From: a virus
Direction: 5' to 3' (one strand)
Virus record (IMG/VR): IMGVR_UViG_3300045988_100207
Length of the DNA: 64,000 nucleotides
Shown: positions 31,738 through 50,819 of the stretch, in pieces
How the letters are laid out: each line of letters opens with the position of its first letter
Position numbering within the stretch: position 1 is the first letter of the stretch
Position numbers and translations under genes: made by a program
The notes under the pieces: model-generated
The model's input: the letters and a program-made list of their open reading frames with translations, nothing else
Database searches by the model: none
Told to the model about the DNA's origin: nothing

Positions 31738-31771
31738 TCTCCTATCTATTCACTTTAAAAATCTTAGAATT

Positions 31772-32047: not shown

Positions 32048-32054
32048 CTAACTT

Positions 32055-32096: not shown

Positions 32097-32111
32097 AATA
32101 TCAGAAAGATT

Positions 32112-32525
32112 ATGGAAAGAAAATACAGACAATCTTTGAACGCCTACGATTATCAGCCGGAGGAAATGAGGGCTTACCTTCGCTACAATGGTTGGCACTT
32201 CAATAAGAAAATGTGTGAGTGGGCAGTAAAGCAGATGCGGAAGAACGGTAAGCCTATCCGCATGATGAGCAAGGATGATATTGAGGAAATCTTGAAAAAG
32301 AACAACATCGTGCTGGAGAATAATGTGGGCTATGATGCGGTTTACATCGCACACATGTGTCTGGCAGACTTCTACGGCTCGTCTATCACGGAAGAAAAGC
32401 AGATGGCCCAGTTCATCAAAGACTACGTAGATGATGAGGATCAGCAGGACGGTTTCATCTTCAACCGCTTCTATGCAGATACATCTTTCAATGGCATAGG
32501 CATACCTTGGGAAGAGATATTGTAG
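32112..32525 (+). CDS. hypothetical protein
   Basis: 137-aa ORF. Confidence 0.55.
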   Translation: MERKYRQSLNAYDYQPEEMRAYLRYNGWHFNKKMCEWAVKQMRKNGKPIRMMSKDDIEEILKKNNIVLENNVGYDAVYIAHMCLADFYGSSITEEKQMAQFIKDYVDDEDQQDGFIFNRFYADTSFNGIGIPWEEIL

Positions 32526-32530
32526 TTGAT

Positions 32531-32558
32531 AGTTTAAAGTTTAAAGTTTATAGTTTTG
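32531..32558. repeat. heptamer tandem repeat (AGTTTAA)x2, AGTTTAT, AGTTTTG
   Basis: Read directly; lies in the gap between 32525 and the next ORF. Confidence 0.7.
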
Positions 32559-32942
32559 ACTGAGCAGGAGATATATTTGGAAAGGTATGACTGGACGGTA
32601 CATGTAATGTACGATGTCCACTCAAAGGATGCCATGAAGGTAAGAAGGCATCTTCGGGATTTGGGATGCGCCGGCATTCCTCTCGAAGATGCCTGTAATC
32701 TCGTGCTCGAAGGTCAGCCCAACAAAGGGATAACCTATTCCAATATAGGCACCAGAAAAACGATAGTAGTAATAGGTTGGACCACCTCAAAAGGGGAGTA
32801 CACGAATAGCCTAACCCACGAAATGCTCCATGTAGTTCAGCACATATCCGAACAGTTCCTTATAAATATGTACACCGAAGAACCCTGCTATCTTCTAGGT
32901 TCCCTCTGTCAAGCCGCCGCCAGCAAGAAAAGCCCCCTCTAG
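32556..32942 (+). CDS. small HExxH protein (putative zinc metallopeptidase)
   Basis: LTHEMLHVVQH motif; track start is TTG, true start uncertain. Confidence 0.45.
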   Translation: MTEQEIYLERYDWTVHVMYDVHSKDAMKVRRHLRDLGCAGIPLEDACNLVLEGQPNKGITYSNIGTRKTIVVIGWTTSKGEYTNSLTHEMLHVVQHISEQFLINMYTEEPCYLLGSLCQAAASKKSPL

Positions 32943-32951
32943 CCCCCGTTC

Positions 32952-33009
32952 CTCAGCATTTTATGCTGAGTCAAAAAAAAGGAGTGAGCCTTGCGCCCAC
33001 TCCTTTTTT
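32952..33009. terminator. tandem hairpins; bidirectional terminator between convergent operons
   Basis: CTCAGCAT/ATGCTGAG (32952-32970), then A8-GGAGTG...CACTCC-T6 (32973-33009); giant ORF stop at 33012. Confidence 0.65.
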
Positions 33010-33011
33010 AT

Positions 33012-36000
33012 TTATTCCAATCTATCCAGTTCATCCACCGCATCCATCATGATTCTGTCAATATTCTGATTAGCGAAGTTGATGCTCTCGGTATCAGAAG
33101 ACTTATCTCTGAGTTTCTTCCAGCGCTTCATCTGTTTCTCTGCCAACTCGATGATTCTAACCTTGGCAGCCTCCTTGGAGTTTTGGAAGTGGAAATACTC
33201 ACCTATATTCGTGATTCTCTTATCAATCGGAACGTTCTTCGATTTCAGGCGGTCCACGTTGGCCATGGTCTTTTCCATTTCGTCCTTGTAGTTATACCAC
33301 TTGCTCTTGGTTCGCTGCAAGCTGCTCTGCTCATTTGGCGTATAGAGTAGTGAGCGAAGGAAAGGAATATCCTTGGTTTCCGTGTCGCTTCCGTGCTTAA
33401 TAACACCGATAGCACGCTCAGTAAAGGTAGCCGCACCACCACCTATGCCACCGATGTAGTGATTCAGCATACTAGGGTTTGTTACCATATCCAGGAAACT
33501 ATTACCCAGCATATCTTCATTACCCTTGGCTACATCGTTAGTCTGAGCATTCACCCATTTATTCACAGCCATATATCCGTCAGGCACACCCCTGTAGGCT
33601 CTCTGCCAAGCAGGGGAATTTTCATTCCAGTCACCACGTCTTTCAATCGGCGCACCCTTCCAGTCGGTATTTAGCTCCCATTCCACGAAAGGAGATAGGG
33701 CAGAAGGAGAGATAGCTTTGATCGTCTCATTCAATGGCTCCTTGCCAGCCGAAGAGTTACCGAGATAGTCCATCACCGGCACAAGCTGCGACATACAGCC
33801 CACGGCATCCAAGGCAGGATTCTTCTGTCCGCTTACGTTTGGCGAGAAGGTCAAGCCAGCCGCCAAGTCACCCAAACCATAGAAGGCTCTCAACTCGATG
33901 GCAAGCGGAATAGTAATAAACTGTCCGCCACCTTTATATATACAGAGATTGTTTCTTCTCACGTAGTCAGGCAACTCGCCGTATGGGTCCTTCACACCCT
34001 TTCTGTCCTTCTCGTCCTCACTCGCAATCAGCACATTGTTACCTAGTGCAGCCAACGCACCGAGAGCAAAAGGAATGGCAAGCATATTGATAGAAGTACC
34101 CACAGGATGATTCTTCAAGTTCTTCACAAGAAGATTTGTACTCTGAATACCGGCATTGAAGAACATAGAACAATGTCTCAGATAGCTAGCCGTAAATCCG
34201 TAAGTCCATCTTGCAGCCGCCTTGCCGCCAGTCATTTCTCCGTTCTTGAAACTCTTGATGGCATCACCGCTACCATGGCGGTTGAAGTTGGTAGATACCT
34301 CCTTCGCATCATAGACCGAACGGATGATAGAGCGGTTACTGTCTCGGCTCGCACAATAGGTAGCAAATCGGGCGATATTCTCAGCCACCTCGTTGATGTT
34401 CGCCAGATTTCCGAAGAAGAAGTCACGAAGGACAGCACCGCCCTTGTCAATCTTGCTTCTTTCGCCCTTCACATCTTTTTTGTATTCCTTGGTCCAATCC
34501 TGCATGTTCTTGATCTGAACCCAACCGGTTTCGCCGCCGTTCTCCATGAACTCCTTGAAATATCGCTGAACCTTGTCGCTCATATCAAGTGTTCCGTTAC
34601 GATACTTGGCAAATAAGCCCAAGCCAGTAGTTCCGCTCAAATCCTTGAAGCTGATATTCGATGCACCCTTATACAAGCCCAACTGCGCATAGTACTTCGC
34701 CCATAGCGCACCATATCTTGCACCCTCCTTGGAAGTAACGTTGCTCGATGCAAACTCCGCATCACGCATGATGTTTCGCATCACGAACTCAGGGTTATAA
34801 GATGTACACAACTGCGCCATCATTCTTGAAATAGAACTCAATGGTTTCATGATTCCCTTGGCACCCGAGTTCTCCAGCAATCCATTCAGAGCCTGCGCCG
34901 CTCTAGGATTTCCGTTGATAATAAAGGTATGGGTCCTTCCGGCAATCTTCACATCTACGATATGCTGCGATTTATTCTCCGCTCTTTGGAACTTATAACC
35001 AATCTTGTCTCTGCGATAAACCTTGTATGCCATACCCTGTGATTCCTTCATCTTCATATCCTTATTGAAGTCTGAAACAATCTGGTTGATTTCGTCGGCC
35101 GTAGCATCCTCAGGAATATCAGGGTAGCGCTCATAGACGATGTTCACCACTGGGTCCTTCTCATACCAGACGCTTGTTTCGGTAATCAGATTATTGCCCG
35201 AATTGTTTCTCGCGAATCTTGCAAATGCCTGACGGATAGCATTCATACCACCGTTCTTGATGGCTCTGTTACCCATCGCACCAATCTGCGCCAGTACGTT
35301 AGTTTCACTCAGATACTTGTGTCCTCTCGCTCTCATAATCGTGCTTCCGATGTAACTCTTCGGGTCACCCTGCTCAGTAATGTATCCATAAGTATCTTCT
35401 GCCGTAGCCTCATCATACTTTCTCAAAGGCACATACCAGTTGAACATATTCGATACATGACCATGCAATTCCTTGCTGATGATGCCATTCTTGTAGTCGC
35501 TGTCAATAGAATACTGGGTAGCAGCCTTCACCTTATCCCAATAGTCCTTTACAGCTCCCTTCTTGATGCTCTCCATCTTCGCTTCCGAATCCATCACGCT
35601 CTGAATAGCCTCGGCATCATTGTAAGGGTCAGAAGATTTCGTCACCTCCTGTATAGCGTGCATACCAGAATAGTCATGCTCGCCAGCCTCGAAGTCTGCA
35701 TCAAAGTGATTTCTGATACTCTCGTCCAACTGTCTGTAGTACTCCTTCAGGTCGATGTTGCCAGCCTTCAACTCGTTGTCAAGATACTCCTTATCGCTAT
35801 AATAACTGTTTTCCAAGAAGTCGGCATCCTGCTTTTTCTGCTCGTCCATCCTCATATTTCTAAGGAAATCACGCACAAAGAACTCTCTGTTTCGCTCCAA
35901 ACCATGCTTGGTAATCATGTAGAGATTGAAGTTGCGAATCTTCTCATCATCCTTCTTTCCGTCGAAAGCATCCAGCACATCGGCCATGGCCTTGTCAAGA

Positions 36001-39000
36001 GGCTTCATCACGTTGCGCTCAAACATCTGAGCCGCATCACTCATCGCGCCCTGCATGGTGTTCTGCAGTATATAAGGATTCTCCGAAGAGGCAATATCCT
36101 CAATCTTCTTGTCTGGCACAATCGCATTCATCAACTTCTTCAACGAAAGCATATTGTCCATATAGCTCTCTGTGAACATATAGCCGTGCTCGTCAAGTGA
36201 ACGGTGGTATCTGTCAAGTGCCGTGCCGGCAGATGGGGTAGTACGGAAGTGAATCTCACCATCTGTAGCCTCATTCCACTCAGCCTTGGTAAGATTATCC
36301 ATACTTCTAACCTTTCCGTCATTTCCGTAGAACATGCCATCATGCGCCACGACAGCAGGCATACGCTCATGGTCGAGACGGTATTTCACCGCCTCGGCTC
36401 TCATCTTCCAATAAGGATCATCCGGATTCTTCTGCAAGTTCTTGCTCAACCAGAGCAAGTACTTCACATCTTTAGTATTAGGAGCAACACGATAACCGAT
36501 TTCGTGAAGGAAATCAGATACCTTGTTTTTGATACCATTCCAGAAGCCCGGTTCACCCTTGCCATCCTCGGCGAGTCGGGCGATACCTTCCTCAATGGCA
36601 TCATAGATATTCAGAGGATTGAACTTTCTCTCCTCATCCACCAGCTTCTTCAAAGCCGCATTCTCAGGCTTATCCAAGTCGTACCATACTTCACGAAGGA
36701 ACTTGTCGAATCGTTCATCACCAAACAACTCGCTCATTCCCTTGTGTCCAACCACCTCATGCCAGATGGTCTTCTCGGCAGTATATCTATCGTGGATATT
36801 AGGCATGTAAAGATGCACCTCGCCAGTCTTCTCGTCATACCAGCCAGTAATCTTTCTACCTTCCTCAATAGCAGCCTTAGCCGCCTTGTTGGTGATTTCA
36901 TCAACCGATGAAACCATGTTCACCTTTGCACCAGTCTTCTGAACCACCTTTTCGATATGGCTCTCAACAGATGAAGTGGGGTAGTTGCCATCGCCGTGGT
37001 CCGTGCGGAACTTGATGCCGCCATCCTTGCCCCATACATTGAAGGCATCCTTTGTCATTTTCACGTTGACGAACTTAGCCTGAGGGAACTCCTGTTCCAG
37101 TTCAGCCATCTGCTTCAAGAACTTCTCCTTTGTTTCAGGGTTCTGTCTGCCTTGCTCTACGGTAGTGATAGGCACACCAAGTTTTACAAGCTCTCTCAAC
37201 TGGTTAGGGGTAACTACGTTCCAAGGGATAGCCAATCCTGTTCCTCTCAGTTGGTCGGCGATTTTCTCAGCAACCTCCTCGTCAGGCAATATTCTTACTG
37301 CCTTTCTCCATCTAGAGAGCATCACGCTTCTCTGTCTGTCCTTTGGCAGGAGGCTGTTTACTGTTCCAGAAGTCCAAGGCACCAAGCCCACAGAGTTCTT
37401 CGCGCCCTCGGCGTGATAGCCGCTAGTCTTCTCGCTCTCAGGAATCTCCCATTCCACAACCTTGATATTGCCTCTAGCGTAAGCGCCAGAGAACTGATCG
37501 TTCATCACCGAAGTGGAAGTGTGCATATAAGGGTTATAAGCCGCTGGTACTGGTCCTTCTCCTGCCCCAGGGTTCTTGTCGGTCTTTACAAGTTGGAACT
37601 TACCGTTCTTCACAAGGTCAGGTCGCTCGTCTGCGCCCATCCAAGCACCAATCTCTGTAGCATCAGTACGCTTTCCGTCAATGATAGCAGCCATAGGGGA
37701 GTAGAGCTTACCGTCCACCTCCTGCATTCCGCTATACATTCTGAAAGTCTTCTCCTTGTTGAGGCGGTCCAGTTCATCCTTGTCGGTAACTCTGTAGGCA
37801 TAGCCGTTTTCCTCAATGTCATTCATGGCAATATCATCAATCTTTTCATTGAAATCATCCATGATGTCATTGAGAGCCTTATCCATCTTGCTTTTATCCG
37901 AAATCTCAAAGAGTTTATGCCAAGCGTTCTTTACAGCTTGCCACAAGGAGTTATCGCCTCGGTTGCGCAATTCGTTAACTGCGTTCATGATTCGCTCACC
38001 TAAAGAAAGGCCAAGTATCTTTCTCTGCTTTCCACCTGCCATTTCAGCAGCAAATTCATACTCATCCTTACCACCATAGTTACGTCTCTTTCCTTCCTCC
38101 CAAACAATTCTACCATCAGCCTTAACCTTATTGTAAATATCAATAACAGTCTTTACAGCTTCAATCTGCTTAGGAGTAAGCATACCTTCTGCCTTTCCGT
38201 CCTTTACAAGGTGGATGGCACCCATAGTAGCCTGATGAATTAACTCATGCAGAATGGTATGAGCCGCCTCTTTAGGGTTTGTGTATGTTCTAGAAAGAGT
38301 ATCAATAAAGAGATTAATGTTTCTTTCTGGTGTAGCTTCACCAACATTGCCTCTCTCGTCACCCTCGTCCATGCCACCAAACTCAACTCCGAGTCGCTTG
38401 GCTATATCGCGCGCCTTCTCAAAGAGTCTTCTTGTGCCTTCTTCTTTTGCTTGATTTGTCGCCTCAAAGAGTCTAGATATATCTGCAAAAGAGGCTTTAG
38501 CTCCTCTTCGCAATCCATAGCCATCTGCGAGAGCTTTGGCTCGAACTTCTCGATAGTCCATTTCTCTCCTTGCGGCAGTTTTGGCAGCTTCAAGTTCAGC
38601 TCTTTTAAGTTGCACAAGATGCGTTCTACCTGCTTTCTCTCGGTTTCCAAAAGTTCGTCCCCAGAATCTAACTTCATCTTCTAGTCCATTTAAAGTGTAA
38701 GTAATTTCAGAAGCCTTGTATCTAGAAAATTCTGAGGTATAATAGTCAAGATGTCTGTTAAACTCGGCTTTATCCTCATTCGACAAGTCCTTAGTCAACT
38801 CGTCAACTCTATCATCAAACTTCTTTTCAATCTGCGAAGATACATTTTTATCTACATCTTCCGGAATGATTCTACTATTCTTAACATCTTTTGTATCTGT
38901 TTTAGAATACTGGAAGCCTCGGTCCTCACGGAAGTGGGTGCCTTCATCCTCAGAAGTATTGCGCTCCTCCTGTACCTTCACGCCCATTTTAGACAGACGG

Positions 39001-42000: not shown

Positions 42001-45000
42001 TTTCGGGCACCATTCTCGTCAAACTCATACACACCGTTGCTTACTTGGCTGTAAGTAGTCAATACATAGTCGTATTCCTCTGGCAGTTTTCCGTTCTTTT
42101 CGATGTAGTCGAGCACACGCTTCACCTCGCTCTTCGATGGCAAAGCAAATACTACATTTCCGTCTGAGTCAGTAATGGCAGCTTCCTTGGCACTACCGAA
42201 TACAAATGGTCTTAGGTCTGGGCTGCCAATATCCACCAAGTCACGGTAAACATCACTCAGCAATCCTGCTGTCTTGGTGAAATATACAGGAACCTGACCC
42301 TGCTTCTTGGCGTATCTGATAAGCGAAGCAGCCTGTCTTCCCTTACCGATACCAGTCATATCTCCAATGATAAAGGCGTTGCCCTTCTTTGCCTGCTGCA
42401 AGGCAAGGGCTACAGAGTCAACCTGCTCTGCAGCAAGATGAGAATACAAATCATCCTTATCATTATAGCCCAGCTCGTCAACAAGGAACTGGTCGGCATC
42501 GCCCAACTTTTCAAGGTTCTTGTTTACCGCCTCCTGCTGGTCGGCAGGCATCACGGCTTTCAGAGTGAATGGATTTCCACTCTTAGGGGTATAGGTAACT
42601 TTCTCGGTGCTTAATCCACGTACGGATTTGTCCACCCGCTGTAGTTGTCCCCGTGGTCCGCTTCCGCTCCCGGTGCTGGCAGGTTCATCAGCATTTGGCT
42701 GAGCGTCATTCCGTCCAGCTCCTCCTGATCCATTTCCTCGCTGCTCGTTGGTTCCAGTGGTTGGTTCTTTGCTTGGAGAAGGCTCTGTCCCTGTTCCGTC
42801 TGTTCTACTATCTCCATCAGAAAGTCTTCCATCTTCTCTTGGCTCGGTTCCTCGTTGATTTTCCAAGTCATCATGGGTTCCTGATACGGAAGTGGAGTCA
42901 AATAGGTCAGACTCTCGCTTACCATCTGGTTCGCTTCCTCCTCGTTTTCCTGCTCGTACTCCCTCTTTAGGAGTACCAGTAGCGCCTTGTTTATCAAGTT
43001 CTGGTTGAGCACTTCTTGTTTCTTCTCCGATGGAAGAATCCATCCGTTCACCTCGTAGTATATCATCTTCAATTCGTTTATAAAGTTCGTCATAATCTTT
43101 CACGGTCTCGGCTCTAGCCTTATCCTTTACTGGTGGAAAGGCATTCTCGTTCAAGCGTCTTCCGTTTATTAATATAATACGTGTAGGGTAGCTGGTTCCC
43201 TGCTTTGCATACAGACCACCATCCACATTAATCACGTCCTCCACATTATAGTGGCTATAGAGATAACCAAGGAAAGCCTTATCCTTCGGATTCAGACTTC
43301 CGTTCTTGGCGTATTCAGTCTTGCCGCCGATGATAATGGCAGCACGACCATCGTCCTTCATGCTCTCCAAGGCATTGATAGCCATCTGTCCTTCCAAAGA
43401 AGAAATCTTGTAGCCGTCATACTCCTTAGTGGTAGCACTACCGAATGGTGGGTTTGTCACCACCACGTCAACGTCCTTGTCTGCAAAAGGCTGAGTTCCG
43501 TCCTGACTGGTCACGTTCTTGAAGCCCTGTCTTCTCAGGTTCGCCAATCGCTGTGCATCAATATCGTTAACATGTACCTTATCCATTGGCAAGCCGATGG
43601 TAAGCATACCGTTGCCGGCACTTGGTTCAAGGGCACTGTCAATCACCTTACCTTTGCCCTTCACATACATATCCGCAAGGAAAGCATAAGGGGCAGGAGT
43701 AGAGTACTGCTGCTTCATCACTCGCTCAGAATCTCTCTGGTTGAGGCTAGGCTGATTCTCATAGAGTGTCTTGATGCGTTCAAACTTCACGGCATCGTTG
43801 GTTGATTCAGAAGAAGCAATACCTCTTGCACGCTTAACAATGGCTGTTTCAGCAAGCTCCTGAAGGTCTGTATCCTTAATATCCTTCAAACCAACTCTCT
43901 CAGCTATCTTTCTCAGTTCAACGATACCGTTAAACTTATGTTTGAAGCCCAACTGTAGGTTCACGGTATCAATAAACTTCTTCTCAGCCAGCTTCCTCTC
44001 CTCGGCAGTCTTGGAGTCACCCACCAGATTCTCCTGATGCTTAGGTGAAGTCTTCTCGTAGTAGTCAGCCCATTCCTTCAAGCTCATGCGCTGCTCACCA
44101 TCACGATAGCGGATATTCATCATCTGCTCATAGATAGCATCCACGTCTTCCTTCTTAAAGAGCTTGGCAGCAGGGGCAAACTCCTTGCGCATTTCCTTCA
44201 CCACGTCTTCAAGATTGTGCATACCTCTCTTGATTCTCAGATAAGCATTCTCGGCCATGGCGCTCACCAGCTTAGGCAATACCTCCAGCTGTCTAGAGTT
44301 AAGACCAACAAACGAAGCAGATATTTCATCCTTGCCGGCATTCTTGAGCATATCCCAAAGGTCATTAACTTTCTTGTTTGAAGCCGCTACTGCTGCATCG
44401 TCAGCAGTTTGCTGAGGCTTCTTTTCGGTTTTTGCTTTCTTCTCCTTCTCGAATCCTTCTGCTGCATTCTTGATTCCTTCCATAGGGTCAGCAGATGGTT
44501 CCGCTTTAGGAGTCTCAACCTTTGGTTCAGTTTTCTGCCCTCTGGTCTTGGCAAAGATGCTTTCATAGATAGCACGGTGCAAATCATCCGTCACCTCACC
44601 ATTAAGATAATCAAGAGCAATATCCTTGGATAAATCATCCACGTCAGCCTTCATGATCTCCTCCTCAGTCAGAGGATGCTCCTTCTTGAATTCCTGGGCG
44701 GCCGCCGCAATCGGGTCAAAAGTAGGGTCTGGCTTCTCTTCTTTAGGAAGGAGTGGGAGACCGCCTTCTTTAGACGTTTCACCATTCAGCTTCTTCATGT
44801 ACTCAATTCCGTCATGAATGAATTTCTCGGTTTCTGCAATATCGTCAGGATGCAGACGCATCAAATTATCATCCAATCCCTTGATATTTCCGATAAGCCA
44901 AGTTGCCTGTTTCTTATTCAGCTTCACACCTTCAAGAAGTTTTCTTGTTGTAGGATCGTCAGAGGTCAGACGTTCAAGATAACTCAACTGCTTTTCAGTA

Positions 45001-48000
45001 GCAGGCTCAACTGGCTCATTCTTGATTCTGTCTAGCGCATTTCTTGCCATGCTGAGAATGCCAGCAATCGTATTACTACGAGAAGGTTCTGGTTTCCACT
45101 CATCATGAGGAATGCCCAGATAATCATCAAGTAAGTCTTCTGCCTTGTAGAGAAGCTGAAAAGCATCATCCTTCTTCTTGATTCCACCTTTCTCAATCTC
45201 TTCAAGCAAAGCCTTCTTACGGTCATAGATAGTACCTTTCGGCATTTCTTCCGAACTGGTTTCGGTCTTATCGTCAATTCGCTCCAACACACCATTCAGG
45301 TCACCAAACTTCTTGCCATCATACTCGTAGTATGAACCAGTGTATTCGCCCTTCTCGTTTGGCTCATCAACCTTGATAACCTCCTTGTCTCCATCAATCA
45401 GAATCTTCTGCTTCATGATAGGACCATTCTTTGATGGAGTCTCGGTTTCCTCGTCCGTCACTTCAATACGACTTTCGAGTTCCTTGTTTACCAAATCGTC
45501 AGGTTCCTCTACTCTTCGTCGCTCTGCTTCTGCTGGTTCATTTCCTCCTGATGCTTCTTGTTGAGGTTCTTCAACGCCTGAAACATCATGGCCTCCTTCA
45601 ATTTCTGAATGTCCTGTTCCATAATCTTGCCATTTTTTAAAGTTCAAATACTCATTAATTAACTCTTCCTTGGTAGGAGCTGCTTCAAACATATTGCCCT
45701 CGCCAGTATTTCTAGCCTTAGCGATGCGGTTGTATTCGTCAAGTAAATCTCTGAAATCAGAAACCTTGCCCTCCAAGGCTAAAGCCATCATCTGAGAGAT
45801 AGAAGGGTAGCGCTTAGCTGCATCCTCACCGAACATGGATGGTGTTCTCAGCAGCGTATCAACCTTATTGCCGCCCTGTCTTGCCTCATAGAGCAACTGG
45901 ATAGCCTGATCTATCTCATCACGAAGAGAGAACTCGCCCAACTTCATATTATCCATTACCGAGCGGATAGCGTTGATAGCCTTGTTCTTCACCGTAGAGT
46001 CGATGCCCAGCATTCTGATAGTCTCTGGCTTGAAGATTGAACCCAAAAGAAGGTTCTTCACATACTCCCTGCCTTGTGCAGAAAGTCGCTCAGGACTATC
46101 CATCATCTGCGCCACCTCGTTCTGTCCGATGATGCCTTTATCTACTAACGTCTTTACCAAGTCATTTATTGCCTTGGAATTGTTAAAGAAAGCATCAAGA
46201 GAGCCATTTCCCTCAATCTCGGCAACAATCGCACCTACCTCGTCAGAAGTCAAGGTCTTAGCCTTGGCAACCGCCTGTTCGGTATTACTCTGAGTCTTCT
46301 TCTCGTTTCGGTTAAACTTAGCGAAGGTAGCTGCATCGTATGGCAATCTCTCATCCGTCACCAACACCAGACGTGGATGCTCGATTCCGCTCTGCTCAAT
46401 CTGCTCTTTGGTAAAGCCGAAGTTCTCGGCATTCTCCAAGAGATCGTTGATGTATTCTGCGTCCGTGCCTTCCTTTGCAGCCTTCTGTCCTGCCATCGTT
46501 CTACCGTTACCATCATAAACGATGCCCTCGTCAGACACCACTGGCACCTGCTCGATAGCCATACCGTTATACTTTCGGGCTATCTGGTCCGTATTCTGCT
46601 GAGCTGCCTTGTCGTGCTCATAGTCACGATCGTTCACGGTTCTGCCCTCAGCATCGGTAGGGAATCCCTCAGATTTCTTATAGTCGTTATTCACATCATG
46701 AGAAGGAGTAAGACTTTCTGCCGGAACAATCTCATAGTGTCCCTTAATCTTTGTCTCTCCGTCAGGCAGCATTCTTGTGCGCTTGTTGCCTACAAGTCTA
46801 GGTGCATTCACAAACTTCTGTGCAGCCACGCTGCCAGCCTCATGAGCGCCCTCAGTCTGTTCAGTACTGCCAACAGTCTCGGCAACCTTCTTGGCAGTCA
46901 TAGTCTTCTTGATATTCTGAGCGTGCTCTAGCTGCTTCTTGGCAGCTTCAATAGTCTGATTCTTCAAAGCCTCCTGCTCCATGATGTCGTTAGGCTCGGC
47001 GGTATAGTCCACCTTCATCTTCTCGGCATCCTTCAAAGCATTCTCAGCTTTCTTAATCTGTCCGTCCACCACCTTCTCGGCATTCTCCCCGAAATCCTCA
47101 GTAAGAATCTCCGCACTCTGCTCAGGAGTCATGCTAGCATAGTCAGGCGTAGGTCTTCCCTTGCTGTCCGTAGCCATAGGAACATCTGTACCATCGGCAA
47201 ACTTACGGGTCTGCTGAGGCTGCTCTACTTGTTGAACTGAGGCATCGCCTTCGCTAGCATTTTCCTCTGCTTCTCCATCACTTCCACTATTGGCATTGTC
47301 GCCTTTTCGAATTTTTCCATCTGTTTCATTGTTACTAATCTCTTCATTTTTATTTTCTTTAGGTTGAACTTCCTGCTGCGCCTTGGCTGCATCCTGCATC
47401 GCCTGCTCCTGTGCCGCCTGATTGTAAGGCTCAGAGTTCTTCATCTGCAATCTCTGACGATATTCTGCAGCAAACTGGTCGATAGGCTGGTTTTGGAGCA
47501 GAGTAACCTCGTCTGCCTTCACGTAAACCATTTCCTTTGTATTAGGATCTAAGCAGACGAGCATATCGCCGCTGCCTTCCTTGGCTCTACCTGTAGTCTG
47601 GTCGAAGGCAACATCACCCGAACCAACAAGAAGTGTTCTTCCGTTGCTGTCTTGAACATACAGAGCCTGCTCGCCATTCATCGCCTGACCGTTCAAGGTT
47701 CCGTGATAGCTCCAATCTGAAATAAAGCTCTTCACGTTTTCCTCTATAGCGTCGGCAGTAGCCTGCTGCATACCCTGCACTCTGGCATTCGCATTAATAT
47801 ATTGGGCAAGTGGGGTCAACTCTTCTTGTATCAATCCATTCTGAATGAGTGCATCGTAAATCTGTGCCGGCGTTAAGCCCTGCTGGTGCAATTGCTCAAA
47901 GGTTTGCTTGAACACATCGTTGCTATCCATCGCTGCATCAAGGGCTTGCTCTGCGTTGCGAAGATTGCGCAACTCATCAACTACCACGCCGCTATCCGGG

Positions 48001-50819
48001 TTGTCCGTTCCCAGACTATGCTCCTCGGCAACCGTCTTACCTTGGCTGGCAGACTGGTCTGCGTGTGGCCTCCAGCTAGGGAAAAGCTCATCTTCGAGTG
48101 CTCTCTTCACATGATAGAAGATTCTGTTCTCCTCATCAGTACGCTTCATCGGGTCCTTGCGCATGATTTTGTCAATATCAATAACAATGCTTCCTTCTTT
48201 ACCAAGAAGTTCTTTGATAGAAGCCATGAAGTTATTAGTATAACCTTTGCTTTCTGATCTGAGGTAGCCAAGCAAACCGTTCTTATCTGCATACTTCGTC
48301 CAATCAAGATAGAGCGCACTCTTCTGGTTGTGCAAGTCATTAATCAGTCGGGCATTATTCGGGTCTGTAATATCCTTATTCTCGTCATATCCGTTTTCTT
48401 TAAGGAATCTAAACGCTAGATTAGTGACAGTTCCATCATCATCTATGAACTGCATATCCTTCATCCTTGCGTAGCCCATCAGCGACATCATATCGTCATT
48501 ATCACGATAAAGCTTCTGCTTGTAAAGAATAGCTCTGCGTTCATCGGCATTCTTATAAGATGTACGTGTAAGCAGCGTTCCATTCTTTGTGTATTCAAGA
48601 ATCTGCTTATTCTTCACGTCGTTCACGCTTCGGTAGCTTTTGCCTCTTGTCGTGTTAAACAGTCCCATGGCCGCATTCACCTTCTCTTTGGTGCTCTGAG
48701 AAACGTCAGGGTCGTTCATGAAATCCGTGTAAGCAGTCTTATACTTCGGATCTCTTGGTGCTGTCTTCGATGCACGGTCCACCTTCACGAAAGCATCCAT
48801 CAGATTCTTGCCAGATGCAGAAGAAATCAATTCATTCTTCTCGTCAGGAGTCAGACGAATATCCACGGCAATAGGAGAGCCATTGGCATTCTTTCCAATC
48901 ACGAAATTACCACCGCTATTATGAGTAAGATGATGCAGAATATTGCCCATCTTCACGAAGTTACTAGACTCGCCAGCCTTGAATGCGCCAACCATCACAA
49001 CATCTTCCAGCCAAGTGCCGAATGAAATATCCTTATCACCGGTCACGTTGTCGGCAACCATCATGGTTCCAGCCTCAACGCCCAGTCCGGCGGCCGTAGC
49101 ACCAAACTTCTGCGCGCCATGAAGCAACCGCTCGCCAGTACTCTTCTCCATACCTGTAATACCGAACTTGGAAACCCAAGGAGACATGATTGCGCCCGAA
49201 ACTCCAAACATCGCACCCGTTACCGCACCATGCTCAGCACCTTTCAGACCAGCCTCACCGATAGCCTGCAGCGAAGTATCATCGCCAGTAGAAGCCTGAT
49301 TCAAAGCAGTAGTCACACCCGAATATCCTGCAAGGTTCAGCGCACCTGTTGCCGTTCTGGTTCCCAATCCCGACATGATTTTCTGTGCCGTAGTCATGTT
49401 GGCCACCTTGAAAGCCATCTGCTGGGCGGTAAGCTTCTGTGCTGCCTTCATCACGCCAGCCTTCACCAGTCCGTTAGTCAGAACTCGGGTTCCAGTATTC
49501 ACGGCAGCACTTGCGCCGGCACCGATTACGGCGAGCGGACCAGAATCAGCAGCCATGTTTACTGCAGTAGAAGCGAATCTCGTACCGATTCCCGAGCGAT
49601 AGGTTTCATCCTTGTGTCCGGCAACCTTCTGAATCTCCGCATCACCATCTGCAATGGCAATACCTTCCTGCAATCTCTGTCTTGTATCTCTAGACATAAC
49701 AGATGGAGCCACCACCATACCGATAATAGAGTTACTGAGGTTCTTGACAATATAGTCAAGCGCACCATGAGGCATGATTTCCTCCTGGTTGCGCATCGTC
49801 AGAGCCTTCTGAGCATAGTTCATAATCTCTGGAGTAACGTATTTGTCCACGTATTCCTCTACACTCATGTTCAGTTTCTCTGCGCTCTCGGCAATATGGC
49901 GCTGCATTCCCTTCTGCGAATAAATCTCGTTGATTTTGCTGCTCAGATTGTTCATCAGAACGTTCTGTCGGTTCACTTGCTCCTGTGTCTGTGCATCACG
50001 GAAAGCCTGTTCCTTTACTGACTGAGGCGCATAGATGCCGCCCATCTTGTCAAGGTTCTGCTGATACTGCTGACGTGTCAATTCCTGTGCCTCATTCATG
50101 GAAGAATCTACCAGTTCGAGCAGATCATTACCCAAAATACCTTTGGACTGGCCGTCATTTCTTACGAACTTGTTACCCTCCACCTCATACTGGGCGAATG
50201 CTCTAGCATCGTCCTCTCTCTGCTGCTTGGCTCTAGCCCTGCGAGCTTCAGGAGTAGAAAGCTGCTGCATCGTCTCGTTGAAGTTCTTGGCAGTAGGGGT
50301 TATTCTGCTTCTGCTGATAGGGGTAGCTCTCTGCTGCTCCTGACGTGCTGACTGCTCTTGTGCTCTTTGCATGCGTGCGCGCGCATTACTAGCCTGCGCC
50401 TGCTGCATCGGGTTCATCTGGTCGTTACGCATGTGCATCAACCGCCAGTTCTGCATGTAGTCTGTACCAGAAGTAGTAGCCGTTCTAGGCTGCTGAGCCT
50501 TCTGCTGCCTTGGCTTCCGATACTGAGCTGCGACTTCCTGCGCTCTCTGCTTCATCGTCAGCTTCTTGACAGGCTGAACTGGCTTCTGCTGCTGAGGCTT
50601 CGGATTTACTGCGTGAAGTCCGAGTCGCTGCGCAAACTCCTCATACGAACTACTGGAAACAGCACCGTCTGCATGAAGCGCATCATAGAGCTGCTTTCTG
50701 TTATGATAGCCCTGCTTGCCAGGCGCATACACGAACTGTCTGAAATGTTCTCTAGTTCCCGATACTGCGCCATCGGCTTTCAAGGCGTTATAAAGTTGGT
50801 CAAATTTATCTCCAGCCAT
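33012..50819 (-). CDS. giant multidomain polyvalent protein (5,935 aa)
   Basis: Uninterrupted 17,808-nt ORF. Motifs: DGNGRTMAG (ParB-like), EPSAGNG + NPPF (N6-MTase), GIGKGRQ / DESH / QMRGRIDRTGQ (helicase), HELIH, HEVVGH. Also Gly/Ala-rich hydrophobic segments. Confidence 0.9.
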   Translation of the reverse strand: MAGDKFDQLYNALKADGAVSGTREHFRQFVYAPGKQGYHNRKQLYDALHADGAVSSSSYEEFAQRLGLHAVNPKPQQQKPVQPVKKLTMKQRAQEVAAQYRKPRQQKAQQPRTATTSGTDYMQNWRLMHMRNDQMNPMQQAQASNARARMQRAQEQSARQEQQRATPISRSRITPTAKNFNETMQQLSTPEARRARAKQQREDDARAFAQYEVEGNKFVRNDGQSKGILGNDLLELVDSSMNEAQELTRQQYQQNLDKMGGIYAPQSVKEQAFRDAQTQEQVNRQNVLMNNLSSKINEIYSQKGMQRHIAESAEKLNMSVEEYVDKYVTPEIMNYAQKALTMRNQEEIMPHGALDYIVKNLSNSIIGMVVAPSVMSRDTRQRLQEGIAIADGDAEIQKVAGHKDETYRSGIGTRFASTAVNMAADSGPLAVIGAGASAAVNTGTRVLTNGLVKAGVMKAAQKLTAQQMAFKVANMTTAQKIMSGLGTRTATGALNLAGYSGVTTALNQASTGDDTSLQAIGEAGLKGAEHGAVTGAMFGVSGAIMSPWVSKFGITGMEKSTGERLLHGAQKFGATAAGLGVEAGTMMVADNVTGDKDISFGTWLEDVVMVGAFKAGESSNFVKMGNILHHLTHNSGGNFVIGKNANGSPIAVDIRLTPDEKNELISSASGKNLMDAFVKVDRASKTAPRDPKYKTAYTDFMNDPDVSQSTKEKVNAAMGLFNTTRGKSYRSVNDVKNKQILEYTKNGTLLTRTSYKNADERRAILYKQKLYRDNDDMMSLMGYARMKDMQFIDDDGTVTNLAFRFLKENGYDENKDITDPNNARLINDLHNQKSALYLDWTKYADKNGLLGYLRSESKGYTNNFMASIKELLGKEGSIVIDIDKIMRKDPMKRTDEENRIFYHVKRALEDELFPSWRPHADQSASQGKTVAEEHSLGTDNPDSGVVVDELRNLRNAEQALDAAMDSNDVFKQTFEQLHQQGLTPAQIYDALIQNGLIQEELTPLAQYINANARVQGMQQATADAIEENVKSFISDWSYHGTLNGQAMNGEQALYVQDSNGRTLLVGSGDVAFDQTTGRAKEGSGDMLVCLDPNTKEMVYVKADEVTLLQNQPIDQFAAEYRQRLQMKNSEPYNQAAQEQAMQDAAKAQQEVQPKENKNEEISNNETDGKIRKGDNANSGSDGEAEENASEGDASVQQVEQPQQTRKFADGTDVPMATDSKGRPTPDYASMTPEQSAEILTEDFGENAEKVVDGQIKKAENALKDAEKMKVDYTAEPNDIMEQEALKNQTIEAAKKQLEHAQNIKKTMTAKKVAETVGSTEQTEGAHEAGSVAAQKFVNAPRLVGNKRTRMLPDGETKIKGHYEIVPAESLTPSHDVNNDYKKSEGFPTDAEGRTVNDRDYEHDKAAQQNTDQIARKYNGMAIEQVPVVSDEGIVYDGNGRTMAGQKAAKEGTDAEYINDLLENAENFGFTKEQIEQSGIEHPRLVLVTDERLPYDAATFAKFNRNEKKTQSNTEQAVAKAKTLTSDEVGAIVAEIEGNGSLDAFFNNSKAINDLVKTLVDKGIIGQNEVAQMMDSPERLSAQGREYVKNLLLGSIFKPETIRMLGIDSTVKNKAINAIRSVMDNMKLGEFSLRDEIDQAIQLLYEARQGGNKVDTLLRTPSMFGEDAAKRYPSISQMMALALEGKVSDFRDLLDEYNRIAKARNTGEGNMFEAAPTKEELINEYLNFKKWQDYGTGHSEIEGGHDVSGVEEPQQEASGGNEPAEAERRRVEEPDDLVNKELESRIEVTDEETETPSKNGPIMKQKILIDGDKEVIKVDEPNEKGEYTGSYYEYDGKKFGDLNGVLERIDDKTETSSEEMPKGTIYDRKKALLEEIEKGGIKKKDDAFQLLYKAEDLLDDYLGIPHDEWKPEPSRSNTIAGILSMARNALDRIKNEPVEPATEKQLSYLERLTSDDPTTRKLLEGVKLNKKQATWLIGNIKGLDDNLMRLHPDDIAETEKFIHDGIEYMKKLNGETSKEGGLPLLPKEEKPDPTFDPIAAAAQEFKKEHPLTEEEIMKADVDDLSKDIALDYLNGEVTDDLHRAIYESIFAKTRGQKTEPKVETPKAEPSADPMEGIKNAAEGFEKEKKAKTEKKPQQTADDAAVAASNKKVNDLWDMLKNAGKDEISASFVGLNSRQLEVLPKLVSAMAENAYLRIKRGMHNLEDVVKEMRKEFAPAAKLFKKEDVDAIYEQMMNIRYRDGEQRMSLKEWADYYEKTSPKHQENLVGDSKTAEERKLAEKKFIDTVNLQLGFKHKFNGIVELRKIAERVGLKDIKDTDLQELAETAIVKRARGIASSESTNDAVKFERIKTLYENQPSLNQRDSERVMKQQYSTPAPYAFLADMYVKGKGKVIDSALEPSAGNGMLTIGLPMDKVHVNDIDAQRLANLRRQGFKNVTSQDGTQPFADKDVDVVVTNPPFGSATTKEYDGYKISSLEGQMAINALESMKDDGRAAIIIGGKTEYAKNGSLNPKDKAFLGYLYSHYNVEDVINVDGGLYAKQGTSYPTRIILINGRRLNENAFPPVKDKARAETVKDYDELYKRIEDDILRGERMDSSIGEETRSAQPELDKQGATGTPKEGVRAGKRGGSEPDGKRESDLFDSTSVSGTHDDLENQRGTEPREDGRLSDGDSRTDGTGTEPSPSKEPTTGTNEQRGNGSGGAGRNDAQPNADEPASTGSGSGPRGQLQRVDKSVRGLSTEKVTYTPKSGNPFTLKAVMPADQQEAVNKNLEKLGDADQFLVDELGYNDKDDLYSHLAAEQVDSVALALQQAKKGNAFIIGDMTGIGKGRQAASLIRYAKKQGQVPVYFTKTAGLLSDVYRDLVDIGSPDLRPFVFGSAKEAAITDSDGNVVFALPSKSEVKRVLDYIEKNGKLPEEYDYVLTTYSQVSNGVYEFDENGARKEKKLAKGKTFGAAALSGQRRRDAIEKLMDNAYLILDESHTAGGNSGQGNYFQHIIQKAKNVTFFSATFAKRPDNMPIYALRTAMNEGGMKSSDLIDAVKRGGATLQEIMSQTLTQCGQMIRRERDMTGVTIDWKAIDDPERVQEQREQYDSIIGLFNDIINFQKKYVSSYVDERNDELAAIQSTMGIKKGTAALGIKNQPFASKAFNTVQQVLLSLKAKSAAERAIDYLKQGMKPVIALNNTNESQTGNLALGEEMDAPDLGTSLKKGLEGTLRYTQKDAKDNSESGYIKLSDLGDEAVEAYHELEKKIEQTSTGLSLSPIDVIKNELQKAGYKVGELTGRQTEFVYNDNGTVTKVKRADTDKKKLARDFNDGKIDALILNKSAATGISLHASSKYKDQKKRVMIVAQQQLDVNDEVQMRGRIDRTGQVARGAYEYVVSLIPAEQRLLMMFKAKLKSLDANTTSSQKSKFNEMEVADITNKYGDKVVREYMAEHLDLYARMADPFGWEKSHGDDLSRIDPQTLVASGGGVGDGEAGADASKLLGRMALLRVSEQEKMLQEIGELYANEIQRLNEMGENDLEITELPLKAKTLHKEVWKQGAEPGGDNAFADNTYIEKVNMAILKKPMKASEVKASQDGLTGGKTWDEYKTEKKAAVKEYFDQKIADETQKYEERAVKAATKAKEKYIKDAKKGQKDSGMSDEQIEKMAGYQYDNIYKQEKDKLNDVMKNLKAKAEMFERVLDTFDTNQTFALPTDMNNPNELSGFGNSYGRLIDIKITDNYSPNASSVSFATLDGRRKITFPIVGKVGAGEGNIDVISAIDNMTKQAISMGDSHLRVLNQNFDNWDRLTSNESRKNGYIVTGNLMQALVDSKDQGLGGQLVKYTTDTGEVKTGILMPDRFDPKGLTTDAPINSVAEKFELSSWHGGIDEVTSSDGEVKVKRIDNNRGYYYELRVPKSKAKGGKYFMDEDLLKLVNGNNFETRGNNMLAEFKPEQLKPVLDRLSKMGVKVQEERNTSEDEGTHFREDRGFQYSKTDTKDVKNSRIIPEDVDKNVSSQIEKKFDDRVDELTKDLSNEDKAEFNRHLDYYTSEFSRYKASEITYTLNGLEDEVRFWGRTFGNREKAGRTHLVQLKRAELEAAKTAARREMDYREVRAKALADGYGLRRGAKASFADISRLFEATNQAKEEGTRRLFEKARDIAKRLGVEFGGMDEGDERGNVGEATPERNINLFIDTLSRTYTNPKEAAHTILHELIHQATMGAIHLVKDGKAEGMLTPKQIEAVKTVIDIYNKVKADGRIVWEEGKRRNYGGKDEYEFAAEMAGGKQRKILGLSLGERIMNAVNELRNRGDNSLWQAVKNAWHKLFEISDKSKMDKALNDIMDDFNEKIDDIAMNDIEENGYAYRVTDKDELDRLNKEKTFRMYSGMQEVDGKLYSPMAAIIDGKRTDATEIGAWMGADERPDLVKNGKFQLVKTDKNPGAGEGPVPAAYNPYMHTSTSVMNDQFSGAYARGNIKVVEWEIPESEKTSGYHAEGAKNSVGLVPWTSGTVNSLLPKDRQRSVMLSRWRKAVRILPDEEVAEKIADQLRGTGLAIPWNVVTPNQLRELVKLGVPITTVEQGRQNPETKEKFLKQMAELEQEFPQAKFVNVKMTKDAFNVWGKDGGIKFRTDHGDGNYPTSSVESHIEKVVQKTGAKVNMVSSVDEITNKAAKAAIEEGRKITGWYDEKTGEVHLYMPNIHDRYTAEKTIWHEVVGHKGMSELFGDERFDKFLREVWYDLDKPENAALKKLVDEERKFNPLNIYDAIEEGIARLAEDGKGEPGFWNGIKNKVSDFLHEIGYRVAPNTKDVKYLLWLSKNLQKNPDDPYWKMRAEAVKYRLDHERMPAVVAHDGMFYGNDGKVRSMDNLTKAEWNEATDGEIHFRTTPSAGTALDRYHRSLDEHGYMFTESYMDNMLSLKKLMNAIVPDKKIEDIASSENPYILQNTMQGAMSDAAQMFERNVMKPLDKAMADVLDAFDGKKDDEKIRNFNLYMITKHGLERNREFFVRDFLRNMRMDEQKKQDADFLENSYYSDKEYLDNELKAGNIDLKEYYRQLDESIRNHFDADFEAGEHDYSGMHAIQEVTKSSDPYNDAEAIQSVMDSEAKMESIKKGAVKDYWDKVKAATQYSIDSDYKNGIISKELHGHVSNMFNWYVPLRKYDEATAEDTYGYITEQGDPKSYIGSTIMRARGHKYLSETNVLAQIGAMGNRAIKNGGMNAIRQAFARFARNNSGNNLITETSVWYEKDPVVNIVYERYPDIPEDATADEINQIVSDFNKDMKMKESQGMAYKVYRRDKIGYKFQRAENKSQHIVDVKIAGRTHTFIINGNPRAAQALNGLLENSGAKGIMKPLSSISRMMAQLCTSYNPEFVMRNIMRDAEFASSNVTSKEGARYGALWAKYYAQLGLYKGASNISFKDLSGTTGLGLFAKYRNGTLDMSDKVQRYFKEFMENGGETGWVQIKNMQDWTKEYKKDVKGERSKIDKGGAVLRDFFFGNLANINEVAENIARFATYCASRDSNRSIIRSVYDAKEVSTNFNRHGSGDAIKSFKNGEMTGGKAAARWTYGFTASYLRHCSMFFNAGIQSTNLLVKNLKNHPVGTSINMLAIPFALGALAALGNNVLIASEDEKDRKGVKDPYGELPDYVRRNNLCIYKGGGQFITIPLAIELRAFYGLGDLAAGLTFSPNVSGQKNPALDAVGCMSQLVPVMDYLGNSSAGKEPLNETIKAISPSALSPFVEWELNTDWKGAPIERRGDWNENSPAWQRAYRGVPDGYMAVNKWVNAQTNDVAKGNEDMLGNSFLDMVTNPSMLNHYIGGIGGGAATFTERAIGVIKHGSDTETKDIPFLRSLLYTPNEQSSLQRTKSKWYNYKDEMEKTMANVDRLKSKNVPIDKRITNIGEYFHFQNSKEAAKVRIIELAEKQMKRWKKLRDKSSDTESINFANQNIDRIMMDAVDELDRLE
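36744..36761 (-). other. HExxGH motif 2 (HEVVGH) within the giant ORF
   Basis: EKTIWHEVVGHKGMSELFG. Confidence 0.5.
38235..38249 (-). other. HExxH motif 1 (HELIH) within the giant ORF
   Basis: AAHTILHELIHQATMGA. Confidence 0.5.
40680..42420 (-). other. strawberry-notch/SNF2-like helicase domain within the giant ORF
   Basis: IIGDMTGIGKGRQ (about 42340-42360), LILDESH (41883-41894), QMRGRIDRTGQ (40716-40748). Confidence 0.7.
43140..43712 (-). other. N6-adenine DNA methyltransferase-like domain within the giant ORF
   Basis: Motif I LEPSAGNG (43611-43631), motif IV VVVTNPPFG (NPPF at 43443-43454). Confidence 0.75.
46380..46640 (-). other. ParB/Srx-like domain within the giant ORF
   Basis: HYEIVPAESLTPSHD ... 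VPVVSDEGIVYDGNGRTMAGQKA (DGNGR at 46500-46514). Confidence 0.5.

Follow-up and report, generated by a model that had tools for sequence, protein, structure and literature searches.

The stretch of DNA analysed here, 64,000 nucleotides (nt) from the IMG/VR virus record IMGVR_UViG_3300045988_100207 and referred to below as the window, is of phage origin: genes for a portal, a terminase and a tail fibre are identified in it. Its giant gene, at 33012..50819, is a single open reading frame (ORF) on the minus strand that begins with ATG and continues for 5,935 codons to one terminal stop, both in the ORF listing and in our own translation. The predicted product has 5,935 amino acids (aa), a mass of 663 kDa and an isoelectric point of 5.6. 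Sequence comparison supports its membership in a known class, the phage-type polyvalent, DarB-like giant virion proteins. The parts of the gene are given below from the N terminus of the protein onwards, with E denoting the expectation value of a match.

47370-50819, minus strand: N-terminal chassis, about aa 1-1150, common to about 40 giants
50580-50819, minus strand: twin repeat of about 35 aa per unit (LYxALxADGAVS...F), aa 1-80
48960-49622, minus strand: Gly/Ala-rich segment, aa 400-620
45450-47222, minus strand: DdrB-type ParB/Srx cassette, aa 1200-1790 (PF18763, phrog_5143/2299)
46380-46754, minus strand: ddrB-ParB Pfam core, aa 1356-1480 (PF18763, E 1.4e-10)
46488-46514, minus strand: DGNGRTMAG, aa 1436-1444
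44670-45332, minus strand: variable cassette 1, about aa 1830-2050, Lys/Glu-rich, present in 21-59% of 75 close relatives
43050-43802, minus strand: N6-adenine-type DNA methyltransferase, about aa 2340-2590, assigned from Pfam, PHROG and motifs I and IV
43608-43628, minus strand: EPSAGNG, methyltransferase motif I, aa 2398-2404
43443-43454, minus strand: NPPF, methyltransferase motif IV, aa 2456-2459
42600-43022, minus strand: low-complexity linker rich in G/S/T/E/R, about aa 2600-2740
40251-42440, minus strand: Strawberry-notch-type superfamily 2 (SF2) helicase, aa 2794-3523 (AAA_34 and Helicase_C_4)
42333-42353, minus strand: GIGKGRQ, Walker A, aa 2823-2829
41883-41894, minus strand: DESH, aa 2976-2979
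40716-40748, minus strand: QMRGRIDRTGQ, aa 3358-3368
38955-40250, minus strand: conserved post-helicase region, aa 3524-3955, with no named domain, aligning to gp3 of the Bacteroides phage BS-TP4
37800-38942, minus strand: variable cassette 2a, aa 3960-4340, probable zincin-like metallopeptidase, present in 71-75% of close relatives
38235-38249, minus strand: HELIH, aa 4191-4195
37032-37802, minus strand: variable cassette 2b, an alpha/beta domain, aa 4340-4596, with invariant YNPYxH, NDQ, R, E and PxSExTSxY
33015-37022, minus strand: C-terminal chassis, about aa 4600-5935 (LPD38, phrog_14770, phrog_616)
36744-36761, minus strand: HEVVGH, aa 4687-4692, with W-H-E-x-x-G-H conserved
34026-34103, minus strand: transmembrane-like helix, the only one, aa 5573-5598
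33360-33989, minus strand: LPD38 domain, aa 5611-5820 (PF18857, E 1.8e-24)

The giant ORF is a real gene under purifying selection and no assembly artefact. At the local base composition, with a stop frequency of about 0.052 per codon, a stop-free run of 5,935 codons would arise by chance at about 1e-133. A scan of IMG/VR with aa 2750-3150 returned 134 relatives, and the analysis drew on 80 loci with 92-100% identity; in 75 of these the frame is uncut by a contig end, and all 75 keep it open over 5,083-6,087 codons. The frame is also intact in contigs binned to Segatella copri and other metagenome-assembled genomes (MAGs), and a Bacteroidales MAG contig from goat rumen, 44% identical, carries 5,586 uninterrupted codons. 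Against five relatives (Nei-Gojobori), the ratio of non-synonymous to synonymous substitution rates (dN/dS) is about 0.01-0.56 in each 300-codon window of the gene. The helicase has the lowest values (0.00-0.07); the highest fall in the low-complexity linker (aa 2600-2740, 0.24-0.56) and around aa 3900-4200. The synonymous rate itself differs about ten-fold along the gene within single pairs of sequences, which points to recombinational mosaicism and frequent swapping of cassettes.

A first-pass annotation made from the letters alone had described one uninterrupted 17,808-nt frame on the minus strand, as our listing and translation reproduce, and had taken the long plus-strand ORFs across it for antisense shadows, a view with which the absence of any PHROG match to the nine such ORFs (169-335 aa) agrees. 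Its estimate of about 40% GC for the genome is too low for the giant ORF itself, which has 46-49% GC, and the protein it saw as an extreme member of its class turns out to be of ordinary size for its lineage, given the 5.1-6.1k codons of the 75 relatives.

A few relatives carry interruptions, each of its own kind. In L007 a TGA stands at gene codon 1728, where the window has TGG (aa 1730); in L008 a TAA at gene codon 2085 replaces TAC (aa 2254); and L095 has a 1-nt deletion (at about 9590) just past NPPF, inside the methyltransferase (window aa ~2470). Beyond the lesion in each of the three, the frame stays open for more than 3,000 further codons. In a fourth relative, L096, the apparent split is a scaffold gap filled with N that falls exactly on a cassette boundary, where variable cassette 2 begins. 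The interrupted alleles come from a protein collection that appears to hold only proteins of up to about 5,000 aa, in which close relatives of the N-terminal query reach at most 2,316 aa; broken or truncated versions of the giants are thus probably over-represented there. Stop-codon recoding or read-through was considered and rejected because the sites differ, a Trp and a Tyr codon are the ones replaced, no tRNA genes were found in the window and 75 of 75 relatives are uninterrupted. A natural split of the gene at module boundaries was rejected in the same way, as the lesions lie at differing sites, all 75 IMG/VR frames are whole and one split is the N-gap. Judged from these alleles, the interruptions would be sporadic lesions or errors, and recoding or a regular split is unlikely.

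The layout of the protein emerged from a survey of its homologues. When 1.84 billion representative proteins were searched exhaustively by HMMER with aa 1-1200, 157 clusters were retrieved, among them about 40 giants of 3.4-6.0k aa that carry the N-terminal chassis at their own N terminus. In blastp maps of 41 giants, both ends recur in nearly all: about 1,150 aa at the N terminus, at 21-59% identity, and about 1,330 aa at the C terminus, at 27-77%. Between these regions lie blocks that may be present, absent or reordered: ParB (aa 1200-1790), methyltransferase with helicase and post-helicase region (aa 2020-3970), the HELIH block (aa 3960-4340) and aa 4342-4580. Even among the 75 close relatives, aa ~3960-4640 (36900-38942) is facultative, occurring in 57-75%, as is variable cassette 1. 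A Pfam census of ten giants that share the chassis found LPD38 in nine, AAA_34/ResIII in seven, and ddrB-ParB, LPD3 and PBECR2 in four each, with LPD23, Kinase-PolyVal, MuF_C, LPD14, LPD1 and PBECR3 in one or two each. On these alignments, the giants consist of a constant N- and C-terminal chassis with exchangeable central cargo, and the shuffling of domains among them is the combinatorial pattern that defines polyvalent proteins.

The N-terminal chassis has no Pfam, PHROG, NCBIfam or PDB sequence match, and its profile picks up pieces in BS-TP4 gp3 and in gp68 of a second Bacteroides phage, BF1-TP2. Separately, the ~35-aa repeat unit at its start recurs in dozens of small proteins of the representative library, at times at the C terminus or in three to four copies (for example in P0171 and P0197), and it also stands at the N terminus of BF1-TP2 gp68. 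Possibly the repeat is a mobile domain in its own right, with a binding or targeting role.

Within the central cargo, three enzyme domains are assigned from profile matches. The ParB cassette aligns by blastp to aa 39-363 of phage P1 DdrB (E 9e-8). The methyltransferase gives Pfam signals over aa ~2400-2554 (MTS at 4.4e-5 narrowly passes the cut-off and N6_Mtase at 7e-4 narrowly misses it), matches PHROG DNA-methyltransferase families and finds, by tblastn, the 'N-6 DNA Methylase' of Acinetobacter phage MD-2021a (1e-35). In the helicase, the N-terminal part matches AAA_34 (PF13872, aa 2794-3090, E 9.2e-15) and the C-terminal part Helicase_C_4 (PF13871, aa 3273-3523, E 1.4e-25); ResIII matches as well (E 1e-4). 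The post-helicase region accompanies this Strawberry-notch-type (Sno) helicase in relatives from Bacteroidota and Clostridia. One PHROG family whose function is not known, phrog_14770, spans aa ~2315-5930; phrog_616 also matches. The stretches that stay unassigned gave nothing significant in permissive Pfam scans and nothing in single-sequence PDB searches, and NCBIfam matched no segment.

Cassette 2a is, by its conserved residues, probably a zincin-like metallopeptidase. Across 11 sequences that are 26-53% identical, neither the H-E-x-x-H motif nor the Glu that follows it by 60 residues ever varies. Pfam zincin matches are weak and all below cut-off: SprT-like in four of the 11 members (best 0.0055), M90 at 0.0027, and 0.033 for the window sequence. 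The profile of the cassette found nothing significant in the PDB; kinship with PhiM1 gp48 (8vb2_A), a candidate that we rejected, scored a non-significant profile E of 0.26.

The neighbouring cassette 2b is constrained and mobile, and it is a candidate for a new activity. AlphaFold2 (AF2) folds it confidently, with a predicted local distance difference test (pLDDT) score of 79 and a predicted template-modelling (pTM) score of 0.79. It has no Pfam or PDB sequence match, Foldseek retrieves no similar fold from the PDB (best E 0.4, template-modelling (TM) score ≤ 0.2), and the cassette occupies different positions in other giants. An ADP-ribosyltransferase (ART), suggested by an R/STS/ExE pattern, was rejected: conservation fails at the Arg and at the second Glu, no Pfam or PDB match exists and the model has no match to an ART fold.

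The C-terminal chassis is the part of the protein with the widest kinship. By blastp its module matches proteins of the Bacteroides phages BS-TP4, BKO1-TP3 and BF1-TP2 as well as 933W p72 and BcepIL02 gp70, and 333 phage records match in all; phrog_10089, the 'DarB-like' antirestriction family, matches this module only, and weakly (1.4e-4). An AF2 model of aa 4640-5839 from a 34-sequence alignment is mostly helical (pLDDT 74.7, pTM 0.69). Foldseek finds no solved relative of this model in the PDB (best E 0.55) and 80 matches at E ≤ 1e-3 in BFVD, to the C-terminal parts of phage polyvalent proteins, with TM scores of 0.5-0.7. An uncultured podovirus supplies the top match, an 'LPD38' protein (E 8e-41, TM 0.57/0.70). 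Among the rest are C-terminal fragments of long proteins, from Ralstonia phage Alix, from E. coli phage PTXU04 and from uncultured phages; the names of these last refer to a lytic transglycosylase, RelA/SpoT or a methylase. As modelled, the conserved C-terminal module is about 1,000 aa long and reaches far beyond the 189-position Pfam LPD38 model. Its H-E-x-x-G-H motif does not vary among 10 divergent giants, and its conservation in the 34-sequence alignment is at least 90%; the region around it has no family match and is modelled at pLDDT <50.

On the whole, these results bear out the first-pass annotation of the protein itself. Its label of giant multidomain polyvalent protein agrees with the profile matches to ddrB-ParB, MTS/N6_Mtase, AAA_34 with Helicase_C_4 and LPD38, and every motif that it listed occurs exactly once, where it had placed it or a few bases off. 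Gly/Ala-rich stretches reported near the N terminus are found (aa 401-600 are 32% Gly+Ala), as is the membrane-spanning-like segment near the C terminus, the sole strongly hydrophobic 19-mer of the chain. It had left about half of the chain without a recognisable domain, and significant Pfam matches indeed cover only about 17%. Of the profile families that it expected, those for ParB, methyltransferase and helicase were matched, the peptidase ones only weakly and below threshold. Two of its catalytic-type motifs part company here: HELIH lies in the probable zincin cassette, whereas HEVVGH has the spacing HExxxH and not the canonical zincin HExxH.

The genes around the giant gene that bear on its interpretation are as follows.

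18528-20561: portal (phrog_156, 5.7e-52)
14048-16165: terminase-like gene, following the 921-aa structural gene
11270-14035: 921-aa structural gene with a homologue in Bacteroides temperate phages
24695-28411: tail-fibre gene, 1,238 aa
50837-54967, minus strand: upstream co-directional genes for 309, 108, 412 and 472 aa, tightly spaced and in one block with the giant gene

A co-directional minus-strand block (56230->33012) ends with the giant gene, as the first-pass annotation had it in calling the gene the close of an operon, and this block converges on the plus-strand structural block, which ends at 32942. A scan detected no intrinsic terminator 3' of the giant gene. The portal, TerL, scaffold-like, capsid-like and 921-aa proteins are 23-40% identical to those of BS-TP4, BKO1-TP3 and BF1-TP2, the only phage records with portal relatives at E ≤ 1e-8 (tblastn), and the 309-aa upstream protein matches BKO1-TP3 gp57 and BF1-TP2 gp70. 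A pair of 400-500-aa genes upstream of the giant gene is also found in L007, L008 and L095. Contigs of relatives reach 72-80 kb, so the giant gene takes up about a quarter of the genome. The names of the sources of close protein relatives point to Prevotella/Segatella copri. A nucleotide search of phage and plasmid collections with the giant gene returned no match. Membership in the Quimbyviridae was rejected: the described members are another phage type, with former Myoviridae as nearest characterised relatives and with DnaG/DnaB, and nothing matches.

Proteins of 400-530 aa directly precede the giants of Bcep22-like and 933W phages too (JC1 gp68, BcepIL02 gp69, 933W p71), in the position of the 472- and 412-aa window proteins (50837-53487, minus strand), and JC1 gp68, which precedes the JC1 giant gene, is virion-associated. 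Searched by tblastn, the two window proteins match neither the 933W nor the BcepIL02 loci at E ≤ 1e-4. By position, the protein preceding the giant gene may be its partner, for example a chaperone or a protein ejected along with it.

Elsewhere in the window, a small DNA methyltransferase ORF at 6325-6792 on the plus strand matches phrog_954 (E 1e-71) over profile positions 51-201 of 229 only, and a 109-aa ORF (5992-6321, plus strand) ends 3 nt before it; the methylase at 5992-6792 may be split or truncated. An HNH endonuclease gene (10574-11179, plus strand; phrog_59, E 1.3e-43) adjoins the 921-aa structural gene, and HNH genes close to the terminase are a familiar phage arrangement. Amid the plus-strand structural block lies a lone minus-strand ORF (28839-29582, 247 aa) with a weak PD-(D/E)XK match (PF11645, E 0.0015) and a match to phrog_5018. 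GC content, 0.43-0.51 over the structural region and the giant gene, falls to 0.34-0.36 in positions 1-6000 and 26000-30000. Positions 1-6000 also show a strong positive GC skew; the dip at 26000-30000 takes in the 3' part of the tail-fibre gene, suggesting that the receptor-binding end has been exchanged horizontally. In BS-TP4 there is a diversity-generating retroelement (26961-37477; reverse transcriptase at 35987-37477) whose predicted target is gp14 (2,645 aa). No reverse transcriptase was seen in Pfam and PHROG scans of about 40 selected window ORFs, with template and variable repeats not searched for.

We consider it likely that the giant gene encodes a phage-type polyvalent protein that is packaged in the capsid and ejected with the DNA into a Segatella/Prevotella host, its chassis carrying an enzyme cargo. 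The 663-kDa polypeptide would be made alongside the virion proteins, if expression is as late as the gene order suggests, packed into the capsid and then delivered with the DNA. The N-terminal part (~1,150 aa) and the LPD38-bearing C-terminal part (~1,330 aa) would serve as the chassis for capsid incorporation and ejection, to which the single hydrophobic helix may contribute. The central 3,400 aa would be the exchangeable enzyme cargo, acting on or near the incoming DNA. This cargo would include a DdrB-type ParB domain, NTPase/nuclease-like, and an N6-adenine methyltransferase coupled to the Strawberry-notch-type helicase in the arrangement of DarB, giving protection from restriction; in P1, the DarB arrangement protects incoming DNA against type I restriction. 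The probable zincin could process the chain into active pieces, and the cargo would hold at least one more domain, whose fold has no match among solved structures. Late expression, packaging, ejection, self-processing and anti-restriction are all inferred here, the last two from what is established for the P1 Dar system and from Iyer et al. (2017, J Bacteriol 199:e00245-17).

Packaging and ejection are the best-supported part of this mechanism, since the C-terminal module is homologous to proteins found in virions and the position of the gene and the identity of its domains point the same way. JC1 gp69 (4,515 aa) is represented by 51 unique peptides in CsCl-purified virions (PMC9144972). The 2,811-aa gp47 of phi24B (LPD5/LPD1/MuF_C/LPD38) is abundant in virions, is invisible in the cryo-electron microscopy map and has been proposed to be an encapsidated ejection protein (bioRxiv 10.64898/2026.04.10.717836).

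Several points weigh against the proposed mechanism. For the Bacteroidota giants, timing, packaging, processing and activity are argued from homology, and the paper on the Bacteroides temperate phages (Gut Microbes 2025, PMC12694917) reports neither virion proteomics nor morphology for BS-TP4 and BKO1-TP3. The window portal is unrelated at E ≤ 1e-8 to 933W- or Bcep22-like portals, so that the evidence from virions transfers through the C-terminal module alone. This chassis has no solved structural relative, and its role in ejection is hence a guess. Similarity to P1 DarB is confined to motifs and architecture, with E 0.015 for the methyltransferase motifs and 0.004 for the helicase motif in a comparison with six sequences and no phmmer hit at E ≤ 1; homologues of P1 DarA, Hdf, DdrA and Ulx were not found among 23 window ORFs (none better than E 0.18). 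Finally, the zincin assignment is weak, with its Pfam scores below threshold.

Four other explanations were weighed. The giant might be mainly a structural ejectosome protein that extends the short tail across the envelope, in the manner of internal core proteins in T7-like or P22-like podophages, with its enzymes secondary or vestigial. This account overlaps with packaging and ejection rather than competing with it, and phi24B gp47 has been interpreted in this way (bioRxiv 10.64898/2026.04.10.717836). It fits the retention of the N- and C-terminal chassis, and not of the enzymes, in nearly all giants, the hydrophobic helix in the C-terminal module, the presence among the BFVD relatives of proteins bearing a lytic transglycosylase, as in T7 gp16, and the failure to recognise any gene for a tape measure, tube or sheath in the window. 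However, methyltransferase and helicase retain their catalytic motifs, and no part of the chain is under tighter constraint than the helicase (dN/dS 0.00-0.07), which argues that the enzymes are functional. Nor does the protein resemble solved ejection proteins: for those of the T7 gp14-16 type or PhiM1 gp48 there is no fold match to the C-terminal chassis (Foldseek against the PDB, E 0.55), and the cassette 2a profile reaches only E 0.26. We hold a mainly structural role to be possible, although rather doubtful.

Methyltransferase, helicase and ParB are ordinary DNA-transaction modules, and no packaging signal or P1 Dar helper was found; the protein could accordingly be an unpackaged late enzyme complex of the cytoplasm that methylates, unwinds or partitions progeny DNA before packaging. 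This is improbable. DdrB-ParB and LPD38 are restricted to phage-type polyvalent proteins, and DdrB-ParB domains are typically encoded in late genes beside virion structural proteins (Iyer et al. 2017, J Bacteriol 199:e00245-17). Moreover, homologues of the LPD38 module are physically in virions (JC1 gp69, phi24B gp47), the giant gene sits where virion proteins are encoded, and 2,500 aa of conserved non-enzymatic chassis would have no obvious use in such a complex.

A still poorer fit is a prophage-encoded defence or superinfection-exclusion system that serves the lysogen with methylase, helicase and nuclease-like activities. The relatives BS-TP4, BKO1-TP3 and BF1-TP2 are temperate, and methylase-helicase combinations are known in defence systems; yet the gene lies in the structural and late block and not in a lysogeny module, and its PHROG matches are limited to DarB-like antirestriction and unknown phage families, which makes this reading very improbable. 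That misassembly or sequencing error joined separate genes, or that the gene is a decaying pseudogene, as the TGA, TAA and 1-nt deletion of the few interrupted relatives might suggest, has next to no probability with a frame whole in 75 of 75 IMG/VR loci, in MAG contigs and in three cultured phages, with interruptions at differing sites and with dN/dS well under 1 throughout.

Returning to the packaged and ejected polyvalent protein, we tentatively raise a further idea, which we rate as rather unlikely: the N- and C-terminal regions might together form an undescribed, self-contained delivery device that threads a train of enzymes of 2-3.5k aa into Bacteroidota, with aa 4340-4596 and probably other stretches representing new anti-defence families. 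What is newly described here is an N/C chassis with exchangeable cargo across about 40 protein families, a C-terminal chassis with no solved relative and at least one confidently folded orphan cassette. About a quarter of the genome is given over to this gene, in a phage lineage with 134 IMG/VR relatives that occurs commonly in human gut viromes. If injected, its product would be the first thing that the host meets, and its cassettes would amount to a catalogue of counter-defence activities for Bacteroidota, in which phage-host conflict is poorly studied. The chassis-plus-cassette layout also yields clean domain boundaries and marks out unassigned modules under constraint, aa 4340-4596 among them, in which new activities may lie. 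The cultured relatives BS-TP4 and BKO1-TP3 make the predictions of packaging and anti-restriction directly testable. The picture of what polyvalent proteins are is unchanged by these findings, and analogues have already been deposited from cultured Bacteroides phages.

The closest known systems are the homologous giants of temperate Bacteroides phages: BS-TP4 gp3 (5,391 aa, PQ571277), BKO1-TP3 gp55 (5,553 aa, PQ571269; already annotated 'DarB-like antirestriction') and BF1-TP2 gp68 (3,633 aa, PQ571263). The paper on these phages does not discuss the giant genes (Gut Microbes 2025, PMC12694917). All have the C-terminal module in common with the window protein, at 28% identity over about 1,200 aa, and BS-TP4 gp3 has the ParB and methyltransferase-helicase blocks as well (39% identity over 1,700 aa). 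In contrast to the window protein, they hold the N-terminal chassis only in fragments and carry a different central cargo; and the giant gene abuts the portal gene in BS-TP4 and BKO1-TP3, whereas in the window it does not.

More distant are the giants of Bcep22-like Lessievirus phages, BcepIL02 gp70 (4,667 aa), JC1 gp69 (4,515 aa) and Bcep22 gp75, which bear the name 'DarB-like antirestriction protein'. Like the window protein they are multidomain and are encoded by the last gene of the virion block, and they take up about a fifth of the genome; they belong to Proteobacterial podophages with unrelated portals, and the homology of BcepIL02 gp70 extends to window aa 5104-5517 only (~400 aa, E 2e-17). 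In 933W p72 and phi24B gp47 (~2,800 aa), the LPD38 C-terminal module recurs, with 26% identity over 465 aa for 933W p72 (E 4e-30). The gene for 933W p72 closes the late block, a position like that of the window giant gene, and its product is about half the size. Judging from their descriptions, ParB, methyltransferase and helicase are not reported or annotated in these two proteins. Conversely, LPD5, LPD1 and MuF_C of phi24B gp47 were not detected in the window protein, and 933W p72 is annotated only as LPD5 domain-containing.

Coliphage N4 provides a precedent for the ejection of very large polypeptides: its virion RNA polymerase, a giant enzyme in a podophage capsid, has about 3,500 aa and is injected with the DNA. 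Family scans found no RNA polymerase domain in the window protein; the N4 enzyme transcribes early genes, as the relevant passage of Iyer et al. (2017, J Bacteriol 199:e00245-17) has it.

The polyvalent class that these authors defined is the one into which the window protein falls. Unrelated effector domains are joined in one chain (ddrB-ParB, methyltransferase, helicase, LPD38 and a probable zincin), and they are drawn from the same repertoire of DdrB-ParB, methylase with Sno/SNF2-type helicase, zincin-like peptidase and LPD38. As in that class, the phage has a portal-terminase system, the gene lies beside structural genes, and domains are shuffled between homologues. The protein differs from the characterised polyvalent examples that we compared, which reach at most 4,667 aa, in its 5,935 aa and in the ~80% of its length without a significant Pfam match, and its conserved C-terminal module is roughly six times longer than the Pfam LPD38 model. 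In P1, the darB gene adjoins the portal gene, and DarB (2,255 aa) has the methyltransferase-then-helicase order of the window protein, whose helicase is of the Strawberry-notch type. The ParB domain of P1 DdrB (995 aa, ParB and peptidase) is homologous to that of the window protein, so that modules divided in P1 between DarB and DdrB here share a single chain.

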